Positions 2,817 through 31,721 of a DNA stretch of 32,000 bases are shown here, in pieces (the stretch's first letter is position 1; each line of letters begins with the position of its first letter). The notes below the pieces were generated by a model that made no database searches, was not told the DNA's origin, and saw nothing but the letters and a program-made list of their open reading frames with translations. Source of the stretch: Candidatus Aldehydirespiratoraceae bacterium. GTDB lineage: Bacteria > Actinomycetota > Acidimicrobiia > Acidimicrobiales > Aldehydirespiratoraceae. Position numbers and translations under genes: made by a program. The stretch lies in contig OZ242337.1 of NCBI GenBank assembly GCA_965208435.1, forward strand, positions 1,422,100 to 1,454,099, written 5' to 3'.

Positions 2817-2889
2817 TTCAATCTCCTGATTCGACCCGTTCTCGGCACTGGCGTTGGCTAGGTGACCTGGTTGCTGCAAGAGTCCTCAT

Positions 2890-3897
2890 ATGAAATATCG
2901 ACTTATGGGTTCGAGCGGCCTCTGGGTTTCTGAGGTCGCGCTCGGTGCGATGACTTTCGGCAACACCGAGTGGGGTGTTGAAATAGACGAGAGCCGTTCG
3001 GTTTATGAGGGTTTCCGGGAGGCGGGCGGCAATTTCGTCGACACCGCCAACATCTACAGCAGGGGACGCAGCGAGCAGTTCGTCGGAGAGTTCATAGCGG
3101 ACCATCGGGACGAGGTCGTGCTGGCGACCAAATACTCAGCGCCGATGCGTCCCGACGACCTCAACGCCCTGGGGAACAGCCGAAAACACATGATGGAGTC
3201 GGTCCACGCAAGCCTCGAGCGTCTCGGCACCGACTACATCGACCTCTATTGGGTCCACGCCCGCGACCACACGACCATGGCGGAGGAGATCATGCGCGGC
3301 CTCGATGATCTCGTCACCTCGGGGAAGGTCCTCTACGTCGGGATCTCCGATGCGCCGGCCTGGCAGGTGGCCCGCTGCAACACAATCGCCGAGCTGCGCG
3401 GTTGGAGCCGCTTCGTTGGACTGCAGATCAGGTACAGCTTGATCGACCGCGAGGTCGAGCATGAACTGTTGCCCATGGCCGAGGCGCTCGACCTCACGGT
3501 CACGCCGTGGGACACGCTGGGCTCAGGTGTGCTGACCGGAAAATACAACCGTGATGCCGACACCGCGGGCCGGGCGACGCTGCGCGGGCGAATCTCGGAG
3601 CGCGGTCTCAAGATCGCTGCTGAAGTTGTGGCCGTCGCCGACGAACTGGGCTGCTCACCGGCACAGGTCGCGCTCAGCTGGGTTCGTTCTCGCAAGGGCG
3701 TGATCGTTCCGCTGATGGGGGCCAGAACACGGGATCAACTCGACGACAATCTGGGCTGTCTCGACCTCGAGCTGCCCGATGAGGCCTTGACACGGCTGAA
3801 CGAGGTCAGTTCGATTCGCACGCCGTTCCCGCACAACATGTTGGCGCCGTTCCGCAGCATCGGCTCCGGCGAGAGCCACCGGCCGGACCAGCACTGA
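2890..3897 (+). CDS. aldo/keto reductase
   Basis: 335 aa; 'MKYRLMGSSGLWVSEVALGAMTFG', 'DTANIYSRGRSEQFVG', 'YIDLYWVH'. Confidence 0.93.
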   Translation: MKYRLMGSSGLWVSEVALGAMTFGNTEWGVEIDESRSVYEGFREAGGNFVDTANIYSRGRSEQFVGEFIADHRDEVVLATKYSAPMRPDDLNALGNSRKHMMESVHASLERLGTDYIDLYWVHARDHTTMAEEIMRGLDDLVTSGKVLYVGISDAPAWQVARCNTIAELRGWSRFVGLQIRYSLIDREVEHELLPMAEALDLTVTPWDTLGSGVLTGKYNRDADTAGRATLRGRISERGLKIAAEVVAVADELGCSPAQVALSWVRSRKGVIVPLMGARTRDQLDDNLGCLDLELPDEALTRLNEVSSIRTPFPHNMLAPFRSIGSGESHRPDQH

Positions 3898-7950: not shown

Positions 7951-8030
7951 CGGACGGTGCCGCAGATCCGCGGACACCGTCAGGGTGGGTTTCGGGTCGG
8001 ACGGCGCCGCAGATCCGCGGACACCGTCAG
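7951..8030. repeat. two direct copies of a 33-nt hairpin-forming unit upstream of dnaK
   Basis: cggacgg[t/c]gccgcagatccgcggacaccgtcag at 7951-7983 and 7998-8030 (one mismatch, 47-nt period); first copy contains GACGGTG-CCGC...GCGG-a-CACCGTC. Confidence 0.85.
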
Positions 8031-8051
8031 AGTGTGAATCTTGCTAGAATG

Positions 8052-8068
8052 CAAGTGTACAGTACTTG
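8052..8068. promoter_or_regulatory. inverted repeat CAAGT-N7-ACTTG upstream of dnaK (possible operator)
   Basis: CAAGTGTACAGTACTTG; perfect 5-bp arms with 7-nt spacer, about 125 nt upstream of the dnaK start. Confidence 0.35.
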
Positions 8069-8231
8069 AATCTGTTTACACCCAAAAAGTTGAGTCTAAT
8101 ATTGTCAACTATGGTGGTGATCTGACGACAGAGGTCCCGACGACGGCCACCACCGTCAACGGGGCACGCAGCCGGACTCTCCGTCCGCCGCGGGAGGAGT
8201 CGTGGAACAGGCGTCGGGCGGCGCTGCTCGA

Positions 8232-9347
8232 TCACCGGTCGATGGTGTTGGTCCCACTTGGAGTGCGACCCGCCGAACAACCCTCAAGTTCAACATCGGT
8301 TGGTGCCGGGAATGGCCCGTCGACCAGGTCACCGCACAATTCGGTCACAACCCCGGCCGCATACGCAGACCCATCGAAAGGCGTGTCGTAGCCGGCATAG
8401 TCTTGCACGTACTGCAGGATGTACGTTCCGTTCTCGTCAGATGGATTCTTGTGATCCACCAGAAGTTCCACAACACCGGCCGCGCCACGCAAGTGAGCCC
8501 CTGCCAACAAGCCTGAGAGCGTGACCTCAACCTTGTTCGAACGACCTCCCGGCGGAGGACTGACAGACGGATCCAACTGATCCCACGACACATACATACC
8601 CAGATAGTCTTTGAGCGTTTTTCCCTTAGCTTTCAACCCCGCCACAATACCATTGTATTTATTTGTGAAGTGATCCTTGATTACAAGAATGTGCTTGTCA
8701 GGATTCGTGAAATCAACATAACCATTTATCCCATTCTTGCCAGTAAAATTTGAATCATAAAAGGCGACCGTATCGGTAGCTAAAGTCGGCACCTCGACAA
8801 CAGGCGGATACACCAATGTGGAACGTACACCATTGGCCCAGGTATTGTTAGGAAGGTCGACGTAGTGTGACGGGTAGAATTTGTCTCCAACCTCAAACTC
8901 AGGAAACTTGTAATAACCTGTATCTACGAGGTCTGACTCTTGAAACTGGAATCCAACAAATCCCAGATAGTTAATAACATTTGATTGAATCAACTTCCAG
9001 TCTGGGTTCGTATCATTCGGATCATAGAGTTTACTGATACCAATTGTTTCAAACAATTCTTTGATTGTAACCGAACTACGTTGTACTGGATTGCCGTCAA
9101 GATCACGTACAACGCGCCCGGGATAGTTGACTTCTGGGTATGATTCAACCGGGTTGTTCCAGTTCTTATTATAGTAGCCCTGCTGAGAAGGATCGATATC
9201 AGATTCATATGCCCAAAGTACATCAATAAAGTCATCGTACGACTTTGTTTGTACATCACCTACAGTTGATTCAGCTCCGACTGCAGGAATCGAGCTTCCT
9301 ATCAAGCTTAGAATCAGCGCAACAATGCTGAACGAATAAATCTTCAT
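8232..9347 (-). CDS. secreted hypothetical protein with anomalously low-GC 5' part
   Basis: 371 aa; N-terminal signal peptide 'MKIYSFSIVALILSLIGSSIPAVGAES'; region ~8590-9347 is much more AT-rich than all neighbours. Confidence 0.75.
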   Translation of the reverse strand: MKIYSFSIVALILSLIGSSIPAVGAESTVGDVQTKSYDDFIDVLWAYESDIDPSQQGYYNKNWNNPVESYPEVNYPGRVVRDLDGNPVQRSSVTIKELFETIGISKLYDPNDTNPDWKLIQSNVINYLGFVGFQFQESDLVDTGYYKFPEFEVGDKFYPSHYVDLPNNTWANGVRSTLVYPPVVEVPTLATDTVAFYDSNFTGKNGINGYVDFTNPDKHILVIKDHFTNKYNGIVAGLKAKGKTLKDYLGMYVSWDQLDPSVSPPPGGRSNKVEVTLSGLLAGAHLRGAAGVVELLVDHKNPSDENGTYILQYVQDYAGYDTPFDGSAYAAGVVTELCGDLVDGPFPAPTDVELEGCSAGRTPSGTNTIDR

Positions 9348-9353
9348 GGGTCT

Positions 9354-10091
9354 TCATTCTCCTCTATTTGTTAATTGTTGAGACGCTAATGGGTCCAACA
9401 CGACCGTGACATTGGTGTGGAGTTGAATGGCTGAAGCAGGTACGGCATCGGAGATCGGACCCTCGACAGTTCGTGCTACGGCACTGGCCTTGCCCGCTCC
9501 GCAGGCCACAAGCAGCAGTTCGGACGCGGCAAGGATCGTGGCGATGCCCTGAGTCATTGCTCGGGTCGGGACAGAGTGCCCGGCCACAAAGAAGCGGGCG
9601 TTGTCCTCCCGGGTCTGCTCGCTCAGTTCAATGACTCGTGTGATGCTGTCGAACGGTGTGCCCGGCTCGTTGAAGGCGATATGGCCATTCGTTCCGATCC
9701 CGAGGATCTGCAGACCGATCGAAGCAGCCCGCACCTCCTGTTCGTAGCGTACGCACTCCGCTGTCAGATCCTGGGCCTGGGTGTTCGGACCATGCAGAGA
9801 GCCACTGCGCAGATCAACGTGTTGCGCGAACAGGCGGTGGACGACAGACCAGTAAGCATTGGGGTCGTACCGTTCCAATCCGACGTATTCGTCGAGCAGG
9901 TAGGCGTCAACGGGACGAAAGCTCAAACCCTGCCGTCGGTGACGACTCACGAGTTCGGCAAAAAGACCTTCCATCGTTTCACCGGTGGCGAGCCCCAATG
10001 CCGGCGACTCTGAGGTGGAGACGAATCGTTCGACGACACCCGCTGCTTCTCGTCCGACGCTGTCGGGGTCGTTGCAGACGATGATCCTCAT
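9354..10091 (-). CDS. nagB: glucosamine-6-phosphate deaminase
   Basis: 245 aa; 'ALGLATGETMEGLFAELV', 'LDEYVGL', 'LGIGTNGHIAFNEPGTPFDS'. Confidence 0.9.
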   Translation of the reverse strand: MRIIVCNDPDSVGREAAGVVERFVSTSESPALGLATGETMEGLFAELVSRHRRQGLSFRPVDAYLLDEYVGLERYDPNAYWSVVHRLFAQHVDLRSGSLHGPNTQAQDLTAECVRYEQEVRAASIGLQILGIGTNGHIAFNEPGTPFDSITRVIELSEQTREDNARFFVAGHSVPTRAMTQGIATILAASELLLVACGAGKASAVARTVEGPISDAVPASAIQLHTNVTVVLDPLASQQLTNRGE

Positions 10092-18587: not shown

Positions 18588-19739
18588 CTAGATCAAGGGC
18601 TGAGGTACCATCCATAGATTTTCGGCGGACCGCCGAAAGAAACCCGCGGGATGCTGTTCTTGCGCCGCCTTCATACGTTCGGCATTCAAGTTCTTTGGGT
18701 TTGCTTCGGTCATTCGAAGCGCTTGAAGACCACCGCAGACTACTTTCGCCGAATACCAACCGAGCCTTTGCGCTCCAATAGGCAACCGGGGTGTTAGATC
18801 CACTGCAAAGGCTGGTCCAGCGGTGCGTTCCATCTCGTTCGCAAGTTCAGCGAGAGTCAGTGGTCGTCCATCTGTGTGATTCGACGCGGGCGGCACGAAC
18901 GCGTCAACCCACTCCCGGAGCGACTGATTCGCTTCCTCAGAAGTCCAGTACTTCGCGCGAGTGAGGTCATCGACAACGTGCCGTGGCGGCACCTGGCCAT
19001 GGGCCGTGAAAACACCGCGGAGCACGCAAAGGACCTGGAGGGCCTCACGAAGCGCTCGGCAACTACCCTCGAGACTTGAGTATGAGATCGCGGCACCTAC
19101 CGCACTGGCCGGCGCCGGACCAATGACACAACCCACGAAAGCGCTGTACCCCGGGATTGGGGTCGCCATACGAGCGATCACAACGTCGGTATCTTGTTCT
19201 TCAGCGCTCGTCAAAAGGCGGTCCATGCTGCTTGATCCTCGGTGTTCAGCGAGATCGACTCGTTCGAGTCTGGCTTGAAGATTCCACGCGACCATCACCG
19301 CATCCCGTTCAACGAGTTCGAGCAGGCCCGACCGTATGGCGGCTTCAAGACTTGGACCGGATGCCGCGCCAGACGGCGACGGGTCAACCGTCGCATTGGT
19401 GTTGATGTCAAGTGGATAGTCCACCTCGACCTCGGGGACATCGACGGTCTGTTCCCAGTCCGAAAGCCTGAAGCCAGAATATGACGTTTCGCGGAGCGCG
19501 CTCGGAAAGAGCGAGCGGCGCTCAACCGCCTCCCCAACGCCACGCAGAATCGTGTCGTGCCGGGTCAGACCCGCCGCACCAACCAGCGCTAGGGAGTGTG
19601 CCTCGCTATCAGTTGCCCCGTTTCGGCCGATATTAATAGCAAGAGTCCACAGCCTACAGTTCTCAACGCACGGCGGGTAGAGCGTGGCGCTGCTGGCCAC
19701 ACCTACCGACGGCTCCAGGGTTTCGAGGTATTTTATCAC
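18588..19739 (-). CDS. YcaO-domain protein (RiPP tailoring candidate), last gene of the operon
   Basis: 383 aa; YcaO motifs 'RGVGEAVERRSLF', 'IRSGLLELVERDAVMVAW', 'SSLEGSCRALREALQ'; 4-bp start/stop overlap with the upstream dehydrogenase gene. Confidence 0.82.
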   Translation of the reverse strand: MIKYLETLEPSVGVASSATLYPPCVENCRLWTLAINIGRNGATDSEAHSLALVGAAGLTRHDTILRGVGEAVERRSLFPSALRETSYSGFRLSDWEQTVDVPEVEVDYPLDINTNATVDPSPSGAASGPSLEAAIRSGLLELVERDAVMVAWNLQARLERVDLAEHRGSSSMDRLLTSAEEQDTDVVIARMATPIPGYSAFVGCVIGPAPASAVGAAISYSSLEGSCRALREALQVLCVLRGVFTAHGQVPPRHVVDDLTRAKYWTSEEANQSLREWVDAFVPPASNHTDGRPLTLAELANEMERTAGPAFAVDLTPRLPIGAQRLGWYSAKVVCGGLQALRMTEANPKNLNAERMKAAQEQHPAGFFRRSAENLWMVPQPLI

Positions 19740-20995
19740 GTCGCCCCGTTCTCGGAAGCTCTCGGCACTCCAACGGATGCTTCATGCAGAATGGCTTCGA
19801 CATCCTCAACCGTGAATCGGCTCAGCACAGGGCGCGGGGCACCCCAGCGATCAATGATCGTTTCCGCCAGCGTGTGGATTTCGGCTTCAGAGAAATCTAG
19901 GTCGGTGCCTGATGGGTGACGTAGCAATTGCTCAAGCTCCTCAGCACCCGAAAGACCGAGTGCTTGAGTCACCTCACAGACCCTACCTGGAAAGCCCCAC
20001 CGGTCGTCGCCGGTCACAACGCGCCGCAGCCAAGGGCCGACTAGCGCGCTGGTCGCCTTGACCTTCCTGATTCCGGCGATCGTCGCCATTTCGTTGGCGA
20101 CGAACCACAGGGGCGATCCGATCGGAGGTCGCCCCTTCAGGGCAGCAGAGGTGTGCGTCGATGCGCTCAGCCAACCAGATGTAAGACGAGCATCGGTATC
20201 ACACAGTCCGGTTTCGGGGAGGCGCAGCATCAGCGCCAGCGATCTGAGGAGACTCTCTGCGACGATGTCTGGGATCGTCAGCTTGTACGGCGTGTTAACC
20301 ACCGGGCCGAGGATCCGCACGAATGCCTCGAACAGCCCCTCCCAAACGGATGTCGCGCTGAGCGTTGATGTTGCAACGCTGTCCAGAATCGCCTCATCAA
20401 AGTGTAGAGATCGTCCCCGGAGCAACAGTCTCTGATCCTGGATCCTCAAACAGGCAACAGAACTCACCTCACTCCCGGTGCCCACCGTTGTCGGAATCGC
20501 TACGAACCAGCGATCATCTCGGTGAGTCCGTTCGACGGTCAACAGGCTGCTTCGCTGTGCTTGCTTTCTCCATCGCCCGATCTGGCTCGGACTCGTGCTC
20601 GCGATGCGCGCGAGTTTTGCTACATCAAGGGTGTTTCCACCGCCGATCGCCAGCACCGTGGTTGGCTTGAGATCAGCCAACCAACGGGCAACCCTTTCGA
20701 TTTCGGACAGATCGGCATCCGGCGCGACTTCAATAACCGGACCCCGGTAACTATCGCTGAGCCACGGGCCGAGCAATGGCATGCGGCTGACCACCTTATC
20801 AACCGCGACCGCGTCAAGGTTCACCGTTGCGAGTGCTCGAAGAATCGAGTTGTCGCCGACCGTGAGCTTTTGACTGATCTGTTGCCAAGGTTCGCCCGGT
20901 TGGCGTCGAGCGACATCAAGTTTACGTCGCAAGTACGTACTCCACCGCTTCGAACGCAAGATCCAGCATTTCATCAAGTTCCTCCGAGGACGCAA
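19736..20995 (-). CDS. Fe-ADH-type dehydrogenase, candidate daptide-type oxidative decarboxylase (MpaB-like)
   Basis: 419 aa; 'TTVLAIGGGNTLDVAKLARI', 'FVAIPTTVGTGSEVSSVAC'. True start probably downstream of 20995, since the ORF overlaps the aminotransferase by 74 nt. Confidence 0.8.
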   Translation of the reverse strand: MRPRRNLMKCWILRSKRWSTYLRRKLDVARRQPGEPWQQISQKLTVGDNSILRALATVNLDAVAVDKVVSRMPLLGPWLSDSYRGPVIEVAPDADLSEIERVARWLADLKPTTVLAIGGGNTLDVAKLARIASTSPSQIGRWRKQAQRSSLLTVERTHRDDRWFVAIPTTVGTGSEVSSVACLRIQDQRLLLRGRSLHFDEAILDSVATSTLSATSVWEGLFEAFVRILGPVVNTPYKLTIPDIVAESLLRSLALMLRLPETGLCDTDARLTSGWLSASTHTSAALKGRPPIGSPLWFVANEMATIAGIRKVKATSALVGPWLRRVVTGDDRWGFPGRVCEVTQALGLSGAEELEQLLRHPSGTDLDFSEAEIHTLAETIIDRWGAPRPVLSRFTVEDVEAILHEASVGVPRASENGAT

Positions 20996-22178
20996 CGAAT
21001 GCGGGAACCAATTGAATGCAGGACGGTCCGGGCTGAACGATTACCCCGCGGCGTAACGCCTCAGTGACGATCTCGCCTACTCGTTGTGGCTCAACGATCG
21101 TCCCTTTCTCATCATGGAGCACAACCGCACGGAATAGCCCGGTGCCGCGCGTGCCTGCAACAAACCGGTTTGAAGCAGAACGCTCAGCGAGCCCGTTGCA
21201 GAGCTGCTCGGCTAACGCCTGGCGTCGCGCTTCAGCGCCGTATTCGATGTGCTGTTGGATTGAGGCGATCATTGCAGCACAAGACGGGGGGGTTCCAGCC
21301 TGCGTCTCGCCATGCACGAATGCGGCGTCGGCGGCGGAGAAGCGCTCACTGACGCGTTCCGACCAAAGAACGGCTGAGGCAGCAGCGGCGCCATTGGTCA
21401 GAGCTTTGCTGAGAACCAACACGTCGGGAGTCACTGGCCAAGTTGAATGCGCGAATAGAGGACCGGTGCGGCCAAACCCTGTGGCGACCTCGTCGGCGAC
21501 AACCAGGACTCCGTACTGTCGCTTCGCTTCAAGGATTTCAAGCAACAACTCCATCGGAGGTTCAATCGCCCCCGAGCCAAGCAACGGCTCTAGCACGACG
21601 GCGGCTACCGAGTCGCCTGAATGGGCAATGAGTCGTCGAAACTCGTCGGCAGATCCCACAGCAACGTGGCGCACATGTCGCTGGTCAGCCCCGTACAAGA
21701 GCTGACCGAGATTTTCTCCTGAAAGCGCCACAGCTCCGAGCGTCGTACCGTGGTAGCTGCCCTTCATGCTGACTACCAACCGGCGTTGGTGCGCCTGCTC
21801 TAGGTTCCAGAACTGCCGCGCAACCTTGATCGTCGCATCAATAGCGGCCCCACCAGATGTCGCAAAGAGGACACGTTGGAAATTGGGCCCGGCTAGCGTC
21901 AGCAAGAGATGGGCCGCCTCCTCGGCAAATCTATGGTTGTAGCGAAAGAGTGTCAGGTATGAAGCTTCGATGAGGGAGGAGTGCACCGCGTCCGCGACCT
22001 GGCGGTTCCCATAGCCAAGGCTGACGTTCCAGAGACCGCTCGTCGCACATAGGCGTCTTTGGCCGTCCAGAAAATCAACGCGGACGCCATGTGCACTGAC
22101 GGCCATTCGCAGAGGGGGCGAAGAAACACTCGGCGGCGTGAAGAACTGAACCACCGAGCTCTCGGTATGCTCACTCAT
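20922..22178 (-). CDS. class III PLP aminotransferase, candidate daptide-type (MpaD-like)
   Basis: 418 aa; 'SMKGSYHGTTLGAVALSG', 'VVADEVATGFGRTG', 'LSKALTNGAAAASAVL'. Confidence 0.85.
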   Translation of the reverse strand: MSEHTESSVVQFFTPPSVSSPPLRMAVSAHGVRVDFLDGQRRLCATSGLWNVSLGYGNRQVADAVHSSLIEASYLTLFRYNHRFAEEAAHLLLTLAGPNFQRVLFATSGGAAIDATIKVARQFWNLEQAHQRRLVVSMKGSYHGTTLGAVALSGENLGQLLYGADQRHVRHVAVGSADEFRRLIAHSGDSVAAVVLEPLLGSGAIEPPMELLLEILEAKRQYGVLVVADEVATGFGRTGPLFAHSTWPVTPDVLVLSKALTNGAAAASAVLWSERVSERFSAADAAFVHGETQAGTPPSCAAMIASIQQHIEYGAEARRQALAEQLCNGLAERSASNRFVAGTRGTGLFRAVVLHDEKGTIVEPQRVGEIVTEALRRGVIVQPGPSCIQLVPAFVASSEELDEMLDLAFEAVEYVLAT

Positions 22179-22632
22179 CGTGTTCCTTTAGGTAAGTGGT
22201 CACATACAGCCGTCGATCCTCGATGTGGTGCTGAGCAGCGGCTATGCACGTTCGTGACGCGATTAATAGGCCTCTCAGCTCCGCTTCCCGGTCAACGGTG
22301 TCCTGAGTAAGAATTCTTGTCGATGTCGTCCAAACGCGAATCGGTCGTGCGTTTGAAGCGACCGTCACATGACGACGAAGGGCCTCCGTGTCGACATACT
22401 CGAAGAGGGTGAACTCCTCGTCGCCGAGATCGATCACGGTGGTCGACTCCTGAGACAAGGACTTGGGTAGATCGACTTCGAGCAAAGAAAGAACGAAGCG
22501 GCCTCCGGGCCGTAGCATCTTCCACACTCGGTCGAAACAGTCACTGCGGTCCTCAGCAGACAGGAGGCTGATCGAGCTCGTACCGACAACTACGACATCA
22601 GCCCCTGAGTCCAGGCAGAACTCCTGCATTAG
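22171..22632 (-). pseudogene. C-terminal part of the IS-disrupted class I SAM methyltransferase (includes one TSD copy)
   Basis: 152 aa in frame 'MQEFCLDSGADVVVVGTSSISLLS...VWKMLRPGGRFVLSLLEVDLPK...' continuing the N-terminal fragment when the IS is removed. Confidence 0.88.
22628..22632. repeat. left target site duplication ATTAG
   Basis: ATTAG immediately before the IS terminal CCTGG; matches the copy at 24246-24250. Confidence 0.93.
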
Positions 22633-24245
22633 CCTGGATCCACCGGTGGGGTTGGGTTGTTGGTGTGTTCGCGTCCGCGGAAAAGGCCTCCTGGTCTGCG
22701 ATGATTGTGATGACTAAAAGTCACTTTCGTCACAAAAACAGGAGGCACTTTTCGTGTCTGTATCATCGCGCAGGTTGGACCGGTTGGCAACAACGTTTGA
22801 TCATGAGGGCCTGGTAGCGAACGCGGGCCTGGTTCTGGCTGCGACGTTGTTCGCTCGTTTGGGTCTGTCGGGGTTGATCAAACGGTGGGTGGACACTGGT
22901 TCGCCGAACCCGGACCGCAAGGTTTTGACGGTGGTCGCAGCGATGCTGGCGGGTGGCACCCATATTGATCATGTCGACATGCTGCGCGCCGGGCGCACTG
23001 GCAGCGTGTTGGGGTTTGCCCCCGCGGCGCCGTCGACGGTGGGAACGTTTCTGCGGACCTTCACGTTCGGTCACGTCCGCCAGCTCGAAGCGGTGGCCTC
23101 GCGGGTTTTGGCGCGGGCCTGGCAACTCGGCGCAGGCCCGGGCTCTTCGCCGTTGGTGGTGGATCTGGACTCCACGGTCTGTGAGGTGCACGGCAAACTC
23201 AAGCACGGCGCCTCCTACGCCTACACCAAAGTGTTGGGCTATCACCCGCTGCTGGCTGTGCGTGCGGGCACCTCTGAGGTGCTCGGAGCGCGGATGCGCA
23301 AAGGCTCCGCTCACTCATCGCGTGGTGTGCTGCGCTTCGTCGATGAGCTCATAGCCAACCTCAAACGCGCGGGTGCTGCCGGGCCGGTCACGATACGCGC
23401 CGATTCGGGGTTCTGGTCCTGGGGGCTGATCGACCGTCTCAACACTGTTGACGTGAAATGGTCGATCACCGTGTCGCTGAACTCTGCTGTCCGCGCCGCT
23501 ATCGAGACGATCGGCGACAAAGCCTGGGTTGACATCGACTACCCCAAAGGGGGCCACGCCCAAGTCGCCGAAACCCTCTATACCACCGGCCGCGGCAAAC
23601 AACGCCGCACCGTGCGCCTCGTGGTGCGCCGCACCCGCCTCACCGACCGCGCCCAGCAACGGCTCTGGCCCAACTGGCGCTACCACGCCTTCATCACCAA
23701 CAGAAACGACCTCAGCACCGTCACAGCAGACCAATTCCACCGCAACCACGCAGTCGTCGAGCTCGCCATCCGCGACCTCAAAGAAGGCTCCGGACTCAAC
23801 CACATCCCCTCCGGGCACTACCCAGCCAACTGTGCATGGCTCGCCTGCGCCGTGCTCGCCCACAACATCGGCCACTGGACCGCCATCCTCACCAACACCA
23901 CACCAGCCACCAACCAAACCCGCCGCACCCGCCTCACCGCGCTGCCCGCCGTGCTCGTCAACCGATCCGGCACACACACCCTGCGATACCCCACCCGCTG
24001 GCGATGGCAAACCCAATTCACCAACACACTCACCAAACTACGAAACCTGCCCGGACCCTCCGGCTAACCCCCACCACCCAAAGGAACCCGGCACCCTCCA
24101 GCACACACCCAGCGCCACCAACCCAACCCAACCCCTGAACCCTGAACCCAACACGCCCCAACACACCAAACCCAGTCCCAAACACCCAACCCGACACCCG
24201 CCCACCAACCACCCCACCCACCAACACCGAATCGGTGGATTCAGG
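22633..24245 (+). mobile_element. complete IS1380-type insertion sequence, 1613 bp
   Basis: imperfect terminal IRs CCTGGATCCACCGGT / CCTGAATCCACCGAT (13/15), flanking 5-bp ATTAG duplication, full transposase inside. Confidence 0.92.
22754..24067 (+). CDS. IS1380-family DDE transposase
   Basis: 437 aa; 'SSPLVVDLDSTVCEVHGKLKHGASYAYTKVLGYHPLLAVRAGTSEVLGARMRKGSAHSSRG', 'HNIGHW'. Confidence 0.92.
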   Translation: MSVSSRRLDRLATTFDHEGLVANAGLVLAATLFARLGLSGLIKRWVDTGSPNPDRKVLTVVAAMLAGGTHIDHVDMLRAGRTGSVLGFAPAAPSTVGTFLRTFTFGHVRQLEAVASRVLARAWQLGAGPGSSPLVVDLDSTVCEVHGKLKHGASYAYTKVLGYHPLLAVRAGTSEVLGARMRKGSAHSSRGVLRFVDELIANLKRAGAAGPVTIRADSGFWSWGLIDRLNTVDVKWSITVSLNSAVRAAIETIGDKAWVDIDYPKGGHAQVAETLYTTGRGKQRRTVRLVVRRTRLTDRAQQRLWPNWRYHAFITNRNDLSTVTADQFHRNHAVVELAIRDLKEGSGLNHIPSGHYPANCAWLACAVLAHNIGHWTAILTNTTPATNQTRRTRLTALPAVLVNRSGTHTLRYPTRWRWQTQFTNTLTKLRNLPGPSG

Positions 24246-24250
24246 ATTAG
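24246..24250. repeat. right target site duplication ATTAG
   Basis: ATTAG immediately after the IS terminal ...TCAGG. Confidence 0.93.
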
Positions 24251-24595
24251 GCCCGTTTCAACGCTGAGGTTACTCCGTCGCCGAGAGAGGCGCGGATCCG
24301 CGTCAATTGTCTCTTCTAAGAAGCGGAGCATCTCTGGCGAGTTATCGACAGCGATCACTTCGGCACCTATTGCGAGAAGTGCCTTCGTGATCCTCCCCGA
24401 ACCGGCTGCAAGCTCCACGACGCGGGTCCCGCGGCCCCCGCATGCCCGGATGATCTCTGGAAGCTCGGAACGATCGTTCTCAGTCAGGTGGTGGTAGAAC
24501 GAGGCACCAGCAACGTACATATCGCCTCGTCGCTCAGCCGAGCAGCGGGCCCACGCGATGCCGCCTCGACCCGGCGGATCGGCTACGGGGGTCAT
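24246..24595 (-). pseudogene. N-terminal part of the IS-disrupted SAM methyltransferase, candidate daptide-type (MpaM-like)
   Basis: SAM motif I 'TRVVELAAGSGRITKALLAIGAEVIAVDNSPEML'; ORF runs into the IS at 24245; ATGA overlap with the upstream gene. Confidence 0.88.
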
Positions 24596-25599
24596 CTCGT
24601 TTCGTCGCAGGATAGCCGGTCTCCAAGTATCTGGGCCTGGACCATCTCACAGCTTTGGACAGCTTGAAGTGATGGGATGCCGAACACACTTGAGATCGCT
24701 TCGATCGCTTCAGTTCGGCTCGCTGTTCCGAACATGATTTCTACGATCGTGGCTGCATCTGGGGGTGCTTTGAGGACCTGGCCAGTCACCGGGTTTGCGA
24801 CCAGATGATCACTCCCATCGAAGAGCACGATCGGAGAGTCGGGACGCTCGGTTGGCAGCTTCGGCAGTACTCCTTGGGTCGTTCTGTAACCGAAGCCACT
24901 GACGAGGGGCATCTCCTTGACGTGTCTCGTCGACACCCGGCGCATGACACCTAGGACGGCTAGGTAACGGCCGAGCCATGGTCGCTCGCTGGTTCCTCGC
25001 TGCAGCTCAGTCCGCGTAGCGGCCTCTGAGACACACCGCTCGGCGGTTCCACCAAAGTAGCTCGGCTGCGTCGACCCATCTTTCCCAACAAATCGACGGG
25101 CACCTGAGGCACTGGCACAGGTGCGCGAGGAACTCAGCGCGCATTCGTCAGCAAACGCAACATAGGGGTGAAGTAGGTGCGGTCGAAAGACGCCTTCGTC
25201 GACGGCATCGTCAGCATCGGCGAGGAAATCCGCGACATCCTCAGTCGAGTGGACCGTGAAAAGGGTTGGGCCGGTGGTCGGAATGTAGGCCCCTGTCGCG
25301 TACGCAAACGAGGTCACCGAGAGGCCGCTGGAGAGCGCAAGTTCGTCGCCGTCGAAGTTGAGCGACCCCGTGTATGTGGCGATGTCGCCTCGAGAATTGA
25401 CGCGGCCCACTAGCTCTTCGGGGACAAATATCAGGCTGGTGGCCGGCAGATCCAGCGATTCAAGTACCGCAGCCGGTGCTCCCGGAAGTATGAGTACCTC
25501 CTTGGGGAACGTGGACACCGAACCCGGTCCATTGTCATACGTGCCGGTCAGCACTCGCTGAAGCCGCATCGCAGCATCTTCTCTACCACTACCCAGCAT
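24592..25599 (-). CDS. putative RiPP recognition/accessory protein (daptide MpaC-like position and size)
   Basis: 335 aa without catalytic motifs; C-terminal 'HLVANPVTGQVLKAPPDAATIVEIMFGTASRTEAIEAISSVFG' resembles a winged-helix/RRE-like segment; located between M50 protease and methyltransferase. Confidence 0.55.
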   Translation of the reverse strand: MLGSGREDAAMRLQRVLTGTYDNGPGSVSTFPKEVLILPGAPAAVLESLDLPATSLIFVPEELVGRVNSRGDIATYTGSLNFDGDELALSSGLSVTSFAYATGAYIPTTGPTLFTVHSTEDVADFLADADDAVDEGVFRPHLLHPYVAFADECALSSSRTCASASGARRFVGKDGSTQPSYFGGTAERCVSEAATRTELQRGTSERPWLGRYLAVLGVMRRVSTRHVKEMPLVSGFGYRTTQGVLPKLPTERPDSPIVLFDGSDHLVANPVTGQVLKAPPDAATIVEIMFGTASRTEAIEAISSVFGIPSLQAVQSCEMVQAQILGDRLSCDETR

Positions 25600-25611: not shown

Positions 25612-27180
25612 TTAACTTGTTAGAGATTCGATTGCCGGCTGAACCACACGTTGCCTTGCCCAGCTGCTTGGTGACAGGCCAGGCTGATGCGCGACTGAGC
25701 GGAGCGCCGCCTCTCGTGGTGCCAGCTCCGATATGAGCTCGATCGGAACACACTGTGCCTTAGAGGTCAGCGCCAACCCGGTTATCGGGACGATGGCCTC
25801 GAGTGGGGTTTCGCAGGACACGGCCGGACCAGTGACGCGCGCTCGGCCTAGTTCAGCTCCAAGCACCAGCCCGCCGCTGTGGATGACAATTTCCATCCCG
25901 ACGTCGATCCCGTCCTTGCTCACTGTTCCCGTCGGGAAGACGACAAACCAATTTCCATCGGTTTGCGTGACGCCACCGACGTAGCGGTTGTCTATCGTGG
26001 TAAACGACAGCGCGGCCGACACGCCCAGCACAGCCACGAGCAACCAGCAGGCCGCTCGGAGCGGTCTTGCTCCTTCTCGCAACACTCTGACGGTCCGGCG
26101 GACCGCGATCCGAAGTGCATAGAAAGAGAGACCAGCGATTAGCGCGAATAGCGCCGCCGCGCCAGGCTTTTCCAGTGCCATCAGCAGGGATCGAATGGCA
26201 ATGATCGCATACATGATGAGCACGATGGGTACAACGAGAGACACGAATCCAAACATGGGTGTCCAGCTGCGGGTCGGCTCCCTGCGGGGACCGCCCAGCA
26301 GTCGAAACGACACCCAGGCCCAGAAGTCGTCAATTGATTTCCTGCGGAGATGTGAGATATCAAGCCATGTGGCGAGAGCCAAATATCCATCCAGCTTGAC
26401 GAAAGGTACAAGGTTGAATAGTGCGAACGCGTAGCATGCGAGACCAAATACCACGAGACCTGTCACGAGTTCGCCGCTGACCGCGTAAGCCAACAAGACG
26501 GCAACGCCTCCCATGGCAGCATGGGCACCAACTCCTGCGAGAGCCACCGCGACTCGTTGGCGCGGCTCAAGCCGCCATGCGCCGGTCACATCACAGAAGA
26601 ACGCGGGCGAGAGGTAGAAGAGCATCACGCCCATCCGCCGAGGTGACTCGCCATAGGCCATCAGGGCGCCGGCATGTGCCATTTCGTGAACGAACGTCGA
26701 AAAAAGGAGCGATATCAATATCGCGGCATACACCTCGATCGAAATGGACGACCCCAGGGAATCGTCAACCAGCTGTCGATTCGTACCGAGGAGAATCAGT
26801 CCCGCGCCGGCAATCGAAAGAAAGAGAAGCCTGATTCTGGGCCTGAGAACGGCGCGAGCGACGCTAGCTAACCAACGCAGCCGAACGGATGGATCAAGGA
26901 GACTGATCTGCAGCGAGAACGGTGGCCGGAACTGAACGCGCTTTGGGCGGATCTCAGCGCATTCGGACAAGAGTTCAAGCCTCTCGAGTTGCCCTCTAGT
27001 CGCCCCCACGAGGGCTGGAAACCATGGCGGCCCGAGGAGTTGCGACACCTCGCTATCTGATATCGTTGGAGCTTGGATCAAGATGTCACGCACCCGTGAA
27101 GCGTCATGCCCGATCCGAACAAACTGGCCGTTGGCTGTCTCGACCAACACGGCTGGGGTTGCCTGATCAGGAGCGGTCAT
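25612..27180 (-). CDS. M50-family intramembrane metalloprotease, candidate leader peptidase (MpaP-like)
   Basis: 522 aa from MTAPDQ...; zinc motif 'FVHEMAHAG', second motif 'NLVPFVKLDGY', many TM segments; ATGA overlap with the permease stop (27177-27180). Confidence 0.85.
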   Translation of the reverse strand: MTAPDQATPAVLVETANGQFVRIGHDASRVRDILIQAPTISDSEVSQLLGPPWFPALVGATRGQLERLELLSECAEIRPKRVQFRPPFSLQISLLDPSVRLRWLASVARAVLRPRIRLLFLSIAGAGLILLGTNRQLVDDSLGSSISIEVYAAILISLLFSTFVHEMAHAGALMAYGESPRRMGVMLFYLSPAFFCDVTGAWRLEPRQRVAVALAGVGAHAAMGGVAVLLAYAVSGELVTGLVVFGLACYAFALFNLVPFVKLDGYLALATWLDISHLRRKSIDDFWAWVSFRLLGGPRREPTRSWTPMFGFVSLVVPIVLIMYAIIAIRSLLMALEKPGAAALFALIAGLSFYALRIAVRRTVRVLREGARPLRAACWLLVAVLGVSAALSFTTIDNRYVGGVTQTDGNWFVVFPTGTVSKDGIDVGMEIVIHSGGLVLGAELGRARVTGPAVSCETPLEAIVPITGLALTSKAQCVPIELISELAPREAALRSVAHQPGLSPSSWARQRVVQPAIESLTS

Positions 27181-27923
27181 CCCAGGCCCTTTTTGTCGAT
27201 CACAAACCACGCGACCGTGGTCACAACGGCGACCCAACCACAGAAGACAACGATGCCAACCGCCCAGCCCACCGTCTCGAAGCTCTGATCCCGATAAATG
27301 GCTAGCTGTGCACCCCCCGGGAGCCATCGGCCGATACTCGGGGACAGCGCCAGCAAAGCCGACTCGGCCGCAAGGGTCCAGACAATCGCGCCGATGATTG
27401 TCGGGACCTGACGCCTTCCGAGCCAGCCAAGCGCCGCACCCCATAGTCCAGCCAGGCCAGAAACCAAGAAGACCCCGATCGCGGTCTTGACCATCTCACT
27501 GTTCCACTCAAGTCGGACGTCCTGTTGCGCCGCCCAGAGTGTCGCAGCAGCTATCCCGGTCCCTGCCCCCACCAGGCCAAAAACGACGCCGGAGCCAATT
27601 CCTGCGACTGCCTTGCCCAAGAAGAGATTTCGTACACGGCCAGCGCTGATGAGAGACCTGATGATGGATTCATTTTGGAACTCCCGGGTCACAATGAGAA
27701 TGCCGACGATCATCGCGAACAGCGAACTTGCAAACCCCAGCGAGAGTATCTGTTGTGTCGCGTCATCGGCTCCCACGGCGCCGATGACGTGCTCGTCGGC
27801 GAGAGTTCTACCAGTCCCAAACATGGCAGTGGCATTTAGAACACCGGAGAAGAGCGAAAGAACCAAAAGCGTACGTCCGGCGCAGAGCTTGATGAACTCC
27901 GCGCGAAGTGTTCGACGCAGCAC
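27177..27923 (-). CDS. ABC-2 type transporter permease
   Basis: 248 aa; multiple TM segments, 'ILIVTREFQNESIIRSLISAGRVRNLFLGK'. Confidence 0.85.
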   Translation of the reverse strand: MLRRTLRAEFIKLCAGRTLLVLSLFSGVLNATAMFGTGRTLADEHVIGAVGADDATQQILSLGFASSLFAMIVGILIVTREFQNESIIRSLISAGRVRNLFLGKAVAGIGSGVVFGLVGAGTGIAAATLWAAQQDVRLEWNSEMVKTAIGVFLVSGLAGLWGAALGWLGRRQVPTIIGAIVWTLAAESALLALSPSIGRWLPGGAQLAIYRDQSFETVGWAVGIVVFCGWVAVVTTVAWFVIDKKGLG

Positions 27924-27925
27924 GG

Positions 27926-28657
27926 TCAGGTTTTCTCGTCAGGTTGTGCGGTCCCGACGGTTACTTCGAGGTACCGATCCTCGAGCGTGCTTGCCCCAGA
28001 AGCCGTGAAGTCGTTCCTGCTGCCCTGGTACCTCACTTGGGTATTCAGTATCGTGACTTGGTCAACGATCTGTTCGATCTCAGTCAAGACATGACTGCAA
28101 AGGATTACGGCCCCGCCACCGTCTGCATGTGCCCGTAGCAAGCGTCGCAACCAATGGATCCCCTGTGCGTCGAGTCCGTTGTGGGGTTCATCGGCTATCA
28201 ATAGACTCGGATCGCCGATCAAGGCAGTTGCGAGCGAGAGACGGCGGCGCTGCCCCGTGGACAACTTCCCCACTCGCCGCTTTGTCAGGCCACTCAATCC
28301 GCACTCCTCGACTAGGTCGTCGACCCGTCGCATCCCCGTGCCAGAGCCAACCGCGGCGGCACGCAGATGACGGCCGACGGTCATGTGGTTGTCAAGCCCA
28401 TTTTCCATCAGCACCCCCACCACCAAGGCGGGGTCAGGCAGATCTAGCAGTCTGGAACCGTAGATCAGGACACTGCCCGATGATGGAGGCGTGATGCCTA
28501 GAAGGCACTTCAGTACGGTCGTCTTCCCCGAGCCATTCGGACCGAGCAGTCCGTGGATCTCGCCCGTCTTGACAACAAGACTCAAATCGTCCACAGCGTT
28601 CACATCCCTGTAGGACTTCGTCAGGCCAGATATCTCGACAGGATGATTGTCACGCAT
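27926..28657 (-). CDS. ABC transporter ATP-binding protein
   Basis: 243 aa; 'GLLGPNGSGKTTVLKCLLGI', 'LSTGQRRRLSLATALIGDPSLLIADEP'. Confidence 0.93.
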   Translation of the reverse strand: MRDNHPVEISGLTKSYRDVNAVDDLSLVVKTGEIHGLLGPNGSGKTTVLKCLLGITPPSSGSVLIYGSRLLDLPDPALVVGVLMENGLDNHMTVGRHLRAAAVGSGTGMRRVDDLVEECGLSGLTKRRVGKLSTGQRRRLSLATALIGDPSLLIADEPHNGLDAQGIHWLRRLLRAHADGGGAVILCSHVLTEIEQIVDQVTILNTQVRYQGSRNDFTASGASTLEDRYLEVTVGTAQPDEKT

Positions 28658-28666
28658 GACTTGGCC

Positions 28667-28873
28667 CTACTTTGGCTGCTGTTTCGAGCGAAACACGCCA
28701 ACTGACGCCAACAGCGACAGGGAAGCCAACATCAGGAGGAACGCCAAGCCGATCGTCGTACCATCAGCGAGGCCAGCGTTGATCACCCAGACTGATAGGC
28801 CAGCGAGACACGCTGCAACCCCTGCGAGCCCCGCTGCAAACTGAGGTGAGGCGGCAAATCTCGGAGACTTCAT
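28667..28873 (-). CDS. small two-TM membrane protein of the RiPP operon
   Basis: 68 aa from MKSPRFAASPQF...; two hydrophobic segments; purine-rich GAGAGAGAG upstream; lies between precursors and ABC ATPase. Confidence 0.6.
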   Translation of the reverse strand: MKSPRFAASPQFAAGLAGVAACLAGLSVWVINAGLADGTTIGLAFLLMLASLSLLASVGVFRSKQQPK

Positions 28874-28922
28874 AGTTTCTATCTCTCTCTCGTGTGTCTC
28901 GAAAGTACTACCGAAGAAGCGC

Positions 28923-28955
28923 GGAGCCCCCGGTGGCATAGCCACAAGGGACTCC
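28923..28955 (-). promoter_or_regulatory. intergenic hairpin between precursor genes and maturation genes (attenuator/processing candidate)
   Basis: GGAG-c-CCC-cg-GTGGC-ata-GCCAC-aa-GGG-a-CTCC, 12 pairs with internal mismatches; no T-tract. Confidence 0.45.
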
Positions 28956-28964
28956 ACGCTTGGC

Positions 28965-29141
28965 TCAGGTGATGGCTACTCCGACGTAGAATAGGGCGAC
29001 CAAACCGAGGCCAATTCCAACGCCCGTAAAGAACGAACCCCAGCCCCAAGGGGCCTCAAGGCTCTCCATTGGTTCCATCTGTAGCGACAACAAAGCAAAC
29101 TCCGCGTCGACAACATCCTGCGTCAATTCCATGGTGTTCAT
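28965..29141 (-). CDS. RiPP precursor peptide 1 (daptide-like, C-terminal Thr)
   Basis: 58 aa MNTMELTQDVVDAEFALLSLQMEPMESLEAPWGWGSFFTGVGIGLGLVALFYVGVAIT; strong SD GGGAGGTGA; absent from the supplied ORF track. Confidence 0.85.
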   Translation of the reverse strand: MNTMELTQDVVDAEFALLSLQMEPMESLEAPWGWGSFFTGVGIGLGLVALFYVGVAIT

Positions 29142-29187
29142 CGATTCACCTCCCTTCGAGGTTAGACGGCGATGGGATGGCTCAGGG

Positions 29188-29367
29188 TCAGGTGACCGCT
29201 ACGCCCAACGCAACGACAGCAAAGCCGATTACAATGCCGGTGGCCAGGCCCGCAAAGAACGAACCCCAGCCCCAAGGGGCCTCAAGGCTCTCCATTGGTT
29301 CCATCTGTAGCGATAGCGATGCGGTTTCAACATCGACGCTAGCGGGGGCCAAGTCAACGATAGTCAT
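29188..29367 (-). CDS. RiPP precursor peptide 2 (daptide-like, C-terminal Thr)
   Basis: 59 aa MTIVDLAPASVDVETASLSLQMEPMESLEAPWGWGSFFAGLATGIVIGFAVVALGVAVT; strong SD GGGGAGGTGA before the internal ATG; ORF track over-extends it to 29448. Confidence 0.85.
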   Translation of the reverse strand: MTIVDLAPASVDVETASLSLQMEPMESLEAPWGWGSFFAGLATGIVIGFAVVALGVAVT

Positions 29368-29814
29368 TTTCACCTCCCCTCTAGTGGTAGGAAGTGCGGA
29401 ATTCGGGCAACAGCAACGGAGGCAAGACGCTGGAAAATAGCGGGGCATCTCTTTCGGAAATGTCAGGAATACCTACGACTATATGACTTCTCTGTGTGTC
29501 GCGCAAGCCGGGGCCAAGTTCTTGGACCATGCCGATTCGACGCCAGCACCAAAAGCTGAGGCACGGAGAAACCGCCTATCGAATTTCGAGGGGAGGGGGG
29601 AGTGACACTAAGGTGGCTCTAGGGGCTCGCCTTCTCTTGGGATTTGTCAGGAAACACTTCTTTTTGCGGGGGCGAGCCTCTCGTATCCCAGTTCCCACCC
29701 AACGAGACACGCAAGCCCAGGGTCTTCTTCACGGGCTCTCACCGCCGACTGATTCCCCGCAACGGAGACACCCGCAGGACAGCGACAGAGAATGCTGGTT
29801 CTGGCGGCGCCCCC

Positions 29815-30480
29815 TAACCCGGATTTTTCAGTAGGGGGTCTGTGTGGGGGTGGTTGCTTTCACGAGATGCCCTCCTGGTGTGGGAGAATCAGGTTTGCAA
29901 GGAGATTCTGGGGCCACATCAGGGGGGCACTCGTATGGTGAATGAGCTTACTGGCAGTCGGCCGCGGTTGAGGTTCACTGGCGGGGGGCGGGGTCTGGCT
30001 GTTCATGCCGGGACGCGGCTGCTGGCTGATCTGGCCGACAACACGGGGTTGACGGCGGCGTTGTCTGAGGTGATGGCGTCGACCAAGGTGCGGGACCGGG
30101 GCCATGACCGGGGCCGGGTGCTTGCTGACGCGGCGGTGATGATCGCCGATGGTGGCGAGGCGATCAGCGATATCGCCGCGCTGGGTTGTCAGCGGGGGCT
30201 GTTCGGGGAGGTCGCGTCGCTGTCGACGCTGTGGCGGACCCTTGATGCTGCAGGGGGCCGTGTCGAACAGATCAAAGCGGCGCGGGCCACAGCGCGCCGC
30301 GCGGTGTGGGCCGCGGGCGCGGACCCGGGGTTCTATGTGATCGACATCGACGCCACGCTGGTGGACTCGCACTCAAACAAGCAGGGCGCCGCGGGGACCT
30401 ACAAGGGCGGCTTCGGGTTCCATCCGCTGATGGCGTACCTCGACGCGACCGGCGAGGCGCTGGCCGGTCTTTTGGGAGGT
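29815..30480 (+). mobile_element. 5' fragment of a second, different IS1380-type element
   Basis: IRL-like 'taacccggatttttcagtaggg', transposase from 29935 'MVNELTGSRPRLRF...FYVIDIDATLVDSHSNKQGAAGTYKGGFGFHPLMAYLDATGEALAGLL' cut at ~30480. Confidence 0.75.
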
Positions 30481-31311
30481 GTCAGATGCTCTGTGTTTGG
30501 CGGGTTTACATGCCCCGAACACGGTGCCGTGGAAGCACCACAGTTGGTTGGGCCGCCACTCACACCAGTTTGGCCACGGCGTCTTGATTTTCTTGGCGGG
30601 GCGTGGCGTGCCGGCCAGCGCAAGGCCGTGACCTGCAAGAACGCGGTCCACCGTTGAGGGCGACACCCACACACGGCCCAGATACGAACCGCGGTGCGCG
30701 AGTTTGCGATGCGACCGGTCGATGTCACCCCACTCGTTGAACAGCGCCACGATCTCGTCGCGTTCAGAACCGAGCAGACTGTGGATCGCCCAGCCGCCCG
30801 CTCGGGCATCATCAAGAGTCCCCCCGGCGCGGCGCAGGCTCCAGCGCCACACCCGGCGGCGGTCCACACCCAGCACCGCACAAACCCGGTCCAGTGTCCA
30901 GCCAGCGTCGACGGCATCGTCGATCAACCCCAACAGCACAGACTTGGCGGTCCCATCAATACGGGCGGGGACACCACCGCTCACACCTCAACCCGATATT
31001 CGGTGCAGCACCGCCAGCTCCACAGCCTGTTCGACCACAGTACGCCCCAGCCGTTCCACCTCCGAGCGCAACGCTGCGGCCTCGGTCGTCTCGGCTTGGG
31101 ACTGACGCCGCCGCCCGGGCTTCGACGTACCCAAAGCCGCGACCGCCCCGTCCCGGGCCACCGCACGCAGCCGAGCGATCACCGACCGGTCCACACCAGC
31201 CTCCGCGGCCGCTTGGGCCTGAGTGACCTGACCGGTGAGCATCCGCACCCACAGGTCGTACTTCTGCTCTGCTGTCAACAGCTTCTTCGGTTTTCTCTGC
31301 TCGGAACTCAT
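30481..31311 (-). mobile_element. IS3/IS481-like element remnant (two-ORF transposase, truncated integrase domain)
   Basis: 30988-31311 orfA-like HTH 'LLTAEQKYDLWVRMLTGQVTQAQAAAEAGVDRSVIARLRAVA'; orfB-like (ORF 30373-30984) '...IKTPWPNWCEWRPNQLWCF' loses homology to rve after WCF. Confidence 0.65.
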
Positions 31312-31395
31312 AGGCTGCAGCCTCCTGTCCTAAGACCGCCAACCCTGCCCGATGCGACTTGAAAAAACTCAGAATCTGTCGCGCGAAGTCAGATG

Positions 31396-31721
31396 CAACA
31401 CACAACCTCTCAGCTCACAAGCACAAGACCATCCACAACTGGGCCTCTAACAACAACGTCGAGCTGTGCTACACACCGACCTACAGCTCCTGGGCCAACC
31501 CCATCGAGGCGCACTTCGGGCCGCTGCGAGAGTTCGTGCTCAACAACTCCGACCACCCCAACCACACCGTGCTCACCCGCCGGCTGCACGCCTACCTGCG
31601 CTGGCGCAACGCCAACGCCCGCGACCCCGACCTGCTCGCCGCGCAACGCCGCGAACGCGCACGAACCCGAGCCGAGAAAGGCCACCGCTGGGGCCGACCA
31701 CACCCACAAGCAGCATGAAAC
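31396..31721 (+). pseudogene. C-terminal fragment of an IS630-like transposase
   Basis: 'NNNVELCYTPTYSSWANPIEAHFGPLREFVLNNSDHPNHTVLTRRLHAYLRWRNANARDPDLLAAQRRERARTRAEKGHRWGRP' without the N-terminal two thirds. Confidence 0.65.

Follow-up and report, generated by a model that had tools for sequence, protein, structure and literature searches.

An operon on the minus strand of the 32,000-nucleotide stretch analyzed here (the window) ends in a gene for a YcaO protein and begins with two genes for precursor peptides that contain no Cys, and no gene for a customary YcaO partner protein accompanies it. This locus raises the question of which residue such an enzyme would modify, and by which reaction.

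The YcaO gene and its product

Positions 18588-19739 of the minus strand hold an intact ORF of 383 aa with a GTG start, which matched Pfam YcaO (PF02624) at E 9.4e-21 and 74.9 bits (cutoff 25.7). The GTG start is supported by the overlap of the start codon with the stop codon of dapC as GTGA and by the N-terminus, MIKYLETL, which resembles the MIDVxxTL of the DapY enzymes of Thermobifida fusca (TfDapY) and Streptomyces azureus (SaDapY), the common pattern being MI(K/D)xLxTL. In a family alignment the motifs GEAVER (residues 69-74) and ELVERD (residues 141-146) were invariant across 19 family members. The invariant residues include E70, E73, E141 and E144, which we take to be the ATP/Mg binders, following the assignment in the published YcaO literature. 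A profile search aligned both motifs with their equivalents in LynD, TruD, Mj-YcaO (M. jannaschii) and Mk-YcaO (M. kandleri). The C-terminus reads VPQPLI, the family consensus being PHPL(P/I).

The AF2 model of the protein had a pLDDT of 89 and a pTM of 0.90, and a Foldseek comparison of this model with solved YcaOs matched Mk-YcaO, LynD, Mj-YcaO, McbD and Ec-YcaO (E ~1e-13, TM 0.6-0.72). The dN/dS of dapY, determined for the window and two orthologous loci (L001 and L002, described below), was 0.18-0.24 and resembled that of dapD and dapB; dapY is under purifying selection. The intact frame, the Pfam match and the confidently predicted fold bear out the YcaO identity given in the initial annotation, which had named degenerate ATP/Mg residues as the finding that would speak against its reading; both acidic motifs are kept.

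Organization of the daptide cluster

The genes around the YcaO gene were assigned one by one, using dedicated NCBIfam daptide models together with Pfam. The minus-strand operon runs from the two precursors through an ABC exporter, DapP, DapB, DapM, DapD and DapC to the YcaO, with dapM present but split. A phosphoglycerate-mutase-like gene lies in convergent orientation downstream, so the YcaO gene is the last one of the cluster. The features are as follows, in the order of their coordinates.

18588-19739, minus strand: dapY, short-form YcaO, predicted C-terminal imidazoline synthetase (Pfam, BLASTP, AF2, Foldseek, dN/dS)
19736-20995, minus strand: dapC, Fe-ADH-like oxidative decarboxylase (NCBIfam daptide_DH, E 1.1e-66, 225 bits, short of the 300-bit cutoff; Pfam Fe-ADH)
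20922-22178, minus strand: dapD, class-III aminotransferase, predicted to form 1,2-diaminopropane from the aminoacetone terminus (NCBIfam daptide_amino, E 2.7e-148, 494 bits, above the 450-bit cutoff)
22171-22629, minus strand: C-terminal fragment of dapM, methyltransferase profile positions 96-236 (NCBIfam daptide_MTase, E 1.3e-23)
22633-24245, plus strand: IS1380-family element with its transposase at 22754-24067 (BLASTN breakpoint against L001/L002; NCBIfam transpos_IS1380, E 2e-83)
24246-24595, minus strand: N-terminal fragment of dapM, methyltransferase profile positions 4-89 (NCBIfam daptide_MTase, E 8e-24)
24592-25599, minus strand: dapB, 335-aa accessory protein with a C-terminal RRE, DapC partner (NCBIfam daptide_RRE, E 2.1e-47, 162 bits, above the 150-bit cutoff)
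25612-27180, minus strand: dapP, intramembrane HExxH/M50 leader peptidase (NCBIfam daptide_HExxH, E 4.5e-94, match from residue 94)
27177-28657, minus strand: ABC exporter, permease 27177-27923 and ATPase 27926-28657 (Pfam ABC_tran, E 3.6e-29; weak ABC2_membrane_4)
28667-28957, minus strand: strongly hydrophobic 96-aa ORF between the precursors and the ABC transporter (position only)
28965-29141, minus strand: dapA2, precursor of 58 aa, predicted core WGWGSFFTGVGIGLGLVALFYVGVAIT (NCBIfam daptide_123, E 3.5e-06, above cutoff)
29188-29373 (or 29367), minus strand: dapA1, precursor of 59-61 aa, predicted core WGWGSFFAGLATGIVIGFAVVALGVAVT (NCBIfam daptide_Mpa1, E 2e-04, and daptide_123, E 6e-04, neither reaching its cutoff)

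The boundaries of three of these genes differ from those of the mechanically called ORFs. The true start of dapC is likely the ATG at 20974, which follows GGAGGA. DapP has 522 aa when read from the ATG at 27180; the mechanical ORF reaches 27444, and the L002 orthologue starts MTVADQ. The mechanical ORF that holds the N-terminal fragment of dapM (24038-24595) continues into the insertion element. The Pfam scan gave no match for DapB. The ABC exporter is located between the precursors and dapP, and the 96-aa ORF beside it, which had no match in Pfam or NCBIfam, may encode a protein that serves the cluster in immunity or as a membrane accessory; its position would assign it to the cluster.

Pfam and NCBIfam searches of 28 ORFs (the cluster genes and the large window ORFs, the smaller overlapping ones being left out) found no ThiF/E1-like protein, TfuA or nitroreductase/flavin dehydrogenase, in agreement with the initial annotation, which had seen no such gene in the operon.

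Precursor peptides

Both dapA1 and dapA2 end in Thr. When translated from their likely starts, both precursors are Cys-free, as had been noted before; an upstream extension with Cys appears solely in the longest mechanical reading (86 aa) of the second precursor ORF. The dapA1 orthologue in L002 starts MKMTIVDL. The published daptide leader motif is ELExMEAP, with cleavage after the motif, and a cut after SLEAP is predicted to release the two cores listed above.

The GWGSFF stretch that had drawn attention as a possible site of YcaO action forms the N-terminus of the predicted core. Both precursors and the L002 copies retain its Ser5; Thr8 of one precursor is Ala in the other. The sole conserved core residue in daptides is the C-terminal Thr, and Trp3 of the daptide core has been linked to DapB engagement and recognition (PMC12670281). 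Since Trp3 of the cores in the window matches that residue, the GWGSFF stretch is probably not the target of the YcaO.

Relation to characterized DapY enzymes

Daptides are RiPPs whose C-terminal Thr becomes an amine, and YcaOs were already listed among the frequent accessory genes of their clusters (Ren et al. 2023). Dommaraju et al. (2025, ACS Cent Sci 11:2143, PMC12670281) described NAD+-dependent oxidative decarboxylation of the C-terminus to aminoacetone by DapBC, conversion of aminoacetone to 1,2-diaminopropane (Dap) by DapD with Lys as the amino donor, and methylation of the Dap amine by DapM. In the presence of ATP and MgCl2, DapY cyclodehydrates the C-terminus to an imidazoline (PMC12670281, PMC12338566), the product being 4-methylimidazoline (Miz, M-63) without DapM and 3,4-dimethyl-imidazoline (Diz, M-49) with DapM (PMC12670281). 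The reaction requires prior Dap installation, the mass change was localized to the peptide C-terminus, and purified Dap-terminated substrates were cyclized with SaDapY or TfDapY as the sole addition and with no partner protein (PMC12670281). In the same work the daptide YcaOs make up a distinct group when YcaOs are arranged in a sequence similarity network, and its discussion refers to standalone, partner-less YcaOs known for amidine formation.

BLASTP of the window YcaO against TfDapY and SaDapY, whose sequences were machine-read from the PDF of Table S4 of PMC12670281 and may be wrong at a few residues, gave E 2e-37 and E 1e-34, respectively, with ~32% identity in both cases, and the SaDapY alignment was colinear from residue 1 to PxPLI. 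The best solved YcaO in a single-sequence search was LynD (E 3e-4). All NCBIfam YcaO equivalog models fell far under their cutoffs; the best match was the SagD/TOMM model TIGR03604 (E 7.3e-23, 81 bits, cutoff 219), and the McrA-thioamidation model TIGR03266 gave E 2.3e-07 and 30 bits (cutoff 365). Judged by sequence against the solved structures and the NCBIfam models, the window YcaO is nearer to TfDapY and SaDapY than to the other YcaOs compared.

Four close relatives, all of 383 aa and with 78-93% identity, came out of a search that covered 5.8 billion proteins. The remaining relatives, at ~30-35% identity, were mostly "YcaO-like family proteins" of Streptomyces, Paenarthrobacter and Cellulomonas. 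All three non-Acidimicrobiales relatives that were looked up (P0008, P0011 and P0020; Paenarthrobacter, Cellulomonas, Streptomyces) sit in daptide clusters, each with an aminotransferase, an Fe-ADH and short precursor ORFs; M50 protease and methyltransferase matches were each present in two of the three.

The window YcaO shares with TfDapY and SaDapY the MIxxxxTL N-terminus, the motifs GEAVER, E(L/V)(V/I)ERD and DLTPRLP, and a PxPL(I/P) C-terminus. It also shares their setting, a daptide cluster with DapA ending in Thr, DapB, DapC, DapD, DapM and DapP, together with Cys-free substrates and the lack of a partner protein. On the other hand, it is ~40 residues shorter, with a deletion of ~36 residues after the first motif, and it ends in PQPLI rather than in PHPLP or PHPLI. 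Its host is Acidimicrobiales-like, not a Streptomyces or Thermobifida, an IS disrupts dapM, and the penultimate precursor residue is Ile or Val instead of Leu. The missing segment, the departure of PQPLI from PHPL(P/I) and the identity of only ~32% to the characterized enzymes count against a DapY assignment. Nevertheless, the sequence relationships and the gene neighborhood make it very probable that gene 18588-19739 encodes a DapY-type YcaO, a tailoring enzyme of a daptide RiPP pathway.

Proposed pathway and alternative reactions

From homology to the T. fusca and S. azureus systems, which have been reconstituted, we infer the catalytic activity, product, leader cleavage site and expression of the window pathway. 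DapB and DapC would oxidatively decarboxylate the invariant C-terminal Thr of both precursors to aminoacetone, which DapD would transaminate to Dap, and a single methyl group would come from DapM (Mmp). In the last step DapY would draw on ATP/Mg, with no partner, to activate the carbonyl of the amide at the penultimate residue, which is Ile or Val in these precursors. The amine put in place by the preceding steps would attack the activated carbonyl, and with the departure of the activated oxygen a C-terminal imidazoline, a cyclic amidine, would remain. Given the imidazoline chemistry of DapY, the missing Cys and the missing E1/ThiF, TfuA or dehydrogenase partner are expected rather than anomalous, and the published C-terminal imidazoline formation in daptides thus resolves the apparent paradox of a YcaO that has neither Cys substrates nor a partner.

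The suggestion in the initial annotation that the new C-terminal amine might close an amidine agrees in essence with the reaction demonstrated for this family (PMC12670281), although the ring is a five-membered imidazoline formed onto the penultimate carbonyl and not a macroamidine. The novelty implied for this chemistry is not supported, since the DapY reaction was already published in 2025. The 335-aa protein, which had been proposed to serve the YcaO in substrate recognition, is DapB, the RRE partner of DapC, and such a role is not required, as the characterized DapY enzymes act alone on purified Dap substrates.

A different outcome, azoline formation on the Ser or Thr of the GWGSFF[T/A]G stretch, had also been considered, and in its canonical form the YcaO would cyclodehydrate Ser5 (or Thr8) of WGWGSFF[T/A]G to an oxazoline or methyloxazoline. 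The window YcaO does resemble azoline cyclodehydratases (LynD/TruD, McbD and the SagD family) in its fold (Foldseek TM up to 0.72), in the aligned acidic ATP/Mg motifs and presumed ATP-dependent amide activation, and in a proline-containing C-terminus typical of azoline-forming YcaOs; moreover, its best NCBIfam match is the SagD/TOMM cyclodehydratase model, and Ser5 is kept in both precursors and in the L002 copies. However, its score lies far under the cutoff of that model, and the window ORFs scanned contain no E1/ocin-ThiF or E1/RRE partner, fused or separate, and no azoline dehydrogenase. The cores offer no Cys and one conserved Ser, Thr8 being replaced by Ala in the other precursor, and the conserved Trp3 region is tied to DapB recognition (PMC12670281). 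Whereas azoline cyclodehydratases use a Cys, Ser or Thr side chain, the nucleophile here would be a post-translationally installed amine and the site the C-terminus, where the change made by the characterized DapY enzymes lies and where it depends on prior Dap installation (PMC12670281). We consider azoline formation at this stretch very unlikely.

Less likely still is TfuA-independent thioamidation, or a bottromycin-like macrolactamidine formed with the N-terminal amine. Thioamidation would fit the weak match to the McrA-thioamidation model, but the score of 30 bits falls far short of the 365-bit cutoff, neither TfuA nor a gene for sulfur delivery was found among the window ORFs scanned, and the window YcaO clusters with DapY enzymes and not with the solved thioamide YcaOs. 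For the macrolactamidine, partner-less YcaOs are indeed known for amidine formation (PMC12670281), and in terms of chemistry a DapY reaction is like that of the amidine-forming YcaOs (the bottromycin macrolactamidine enzyme and those making ammonia-dependent backbone amidines): in each case the amidine arises when nitrogen, as the nucleophile, attacks a backbone amide that has been activated with ATP, and action without an E1 partner is possible (PMC12670281). A macrolactamidine of this type, however, needs a free N-terminus, which is present only after DapP cleavage, and the daptide-cluster context speaks against a bottromycin-type enzyme. Unlike the bottromycin type, the predicted product is a five-membered imidazoline at the C-terminus, and its amine would come from three earlier modifications.

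A short form of DapY

The family alignment showed that the window YcaO and its four close relatives are without ~36 residues directly after the first motif. In P0008, a relative of full length, a high-confidence prediction shows the corresponding segment (residues ~79-115) as ordered, with three short helices and one short strand. In the AF2 model of the window protein, helix 60-77 leads straight into strand 86-91, with the gap falling at residues ~78-85. The same region is also short in the alignment of the M. kandleri YcaO and is thus a variable element of the fold. The deletion was also considered as the mark of a pseudogene, and this was rejected: the four orthologues have it as well, dN/dS is ~0.2, neither motif is damaged and the AF2 model has high confidence.

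The Acidimicrobiales short form of DapY is a new feature, and DapY-containing daptide clusters extend into Acidimicrobiales MAGs. The supplements of PMC12670281, with Dataset S1 covered in part, make no mention of Acidimicrobiia, which does not establish their absence. DapY is already in use for the engineering of peptide C-termini, and the short form, as a naturally minimized DapY, could help to define the minimal catalytic core.

Disruption of dapM and state of the pathway

The IS1380 element that splits dapM is 1613 bp long and is missing from L001 and L002, two orthologous Acidimicrobiales MAG loci that are syntenic with the window cluster and in which dapM is intact (268 aa). These were the only two loci found by a genome-collection scan with close-relative patterns, so their number is not a measure of family size. 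The element has terminal inverted repeats CCTG(G/A)ATCCACCG and is bordered by a perfect 5-bp target duplication, ATTAG, at 22628-22632 and 24246-24250 (BLASTN breakpoint overlap 5 bp); its transposase lies on the strand opposite to the dap genes.

The disrupted dapM, the second new feature of the locus, represents a natural delta-dapM genotype. Because the IS1380 element splits this gene, any product would be Miz rather than Diz if dapD-dapC-dapY are still expressed. The expected end group in the window, provided that these genes are transcribed, is thus unmethylated Miz (M-63), with predicted [M+H]+ values of 2724.51 and 2703.52 for the cores cut after EAP, and the intact L002 cluster would be expected to yield Diz (M-49). 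For the same window cores the values calculated for the other end groups are 2738.52 and 2717.53 (Diz) and 2770.55 and 2749.56 (Dmp); the cores of L002 deviate at a few residues. In L002 the ABC ATPase (2682-3432) is split into two overlapping ORFs of 162 and 147 aa, by a frameshift or a MAG assembly error.

In L001, the closest of the orthologous MAG loci, a related IS1380-type transposase stands in place of the precursor genes (741-2320; compare 28995-29450 of the window). Roughly the final 10 codons of dapA2 are all that is left, and this cluster therefore appears to have lost its substrates. Since dapD, dapC and dapY lie downstream of the IS in the window, polar loss of expression is possible, and the insertion may silence the three genes. 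The IS in dapM, the loss of precursors in L001 and the bordering IS fragments together suggest that the daptide pathway may be decaying in this lineage. Among these fragments, just upstream of the precursors at 29842-31400, are an IS1380 transposase ORF of 271 aa that is truncated, covering only profile positions 6-178, and HTH_23/HTH_32 transposase-like ORFs; the daptide cluster adjoins IS debris.

The locus could even be a dead remnant, in which the YcaO is intact but the IS in dapM blocks transcription of dapD-dapC-dapY and neither substrate nor product is made. The insertion with its perfect duplication and opposite-strand transposase upstream of dapD, dapC and dapY, the precursors lost to a related IS in the sister genome L001, and the IS debris flanking the cluster all point that way. 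Across the three genomes, however, dapY, dapD and dapB have dN/dS values of ~0.12-0.28 with no frameshifts seen in them, and a simple scan, itself weak evidence, counted 3 terminator-like sites across the IS against 2.2 expected, which is no excess. We regard a dead remnant as possible but doubtful, and it would concern expression in one strain and not the identity of the enzyme.

If the short DapY works in this dapM-inactivated genome, its product would be a naturally occurring daptide with Miz, which has to date been observed as an end group in vitro alone. Another possibility is that losing the ~36-residue element has altered substrate gating relative to the characterized DapY enzymes, for example toward a preference for primary-amine Dap. 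Either outcome seems to us unlikely.

A DapY daptide cluster was also present in Cellulomonas chengniuliangii (CP101988.1, 1-11281; locus L004), where it is accompanied by a class-III lanthipeptide-synthetase-like gene and a glycosyltransferase. No methyltransferase was visible in the 10 kb of sequence covered; if L004 is truly without one, Miz could be a natural end group there. Elsewhere in the window, positions 8001-10000 have a GC content of 0.52-0.53, compared with ~0.64 in the remainder, and this low-GC patch holds a 371-aa ORF (8232-9347, minus strand) that had no Pfam match and adjoins a glucosamine-6-phosphate isomerase-like gene.
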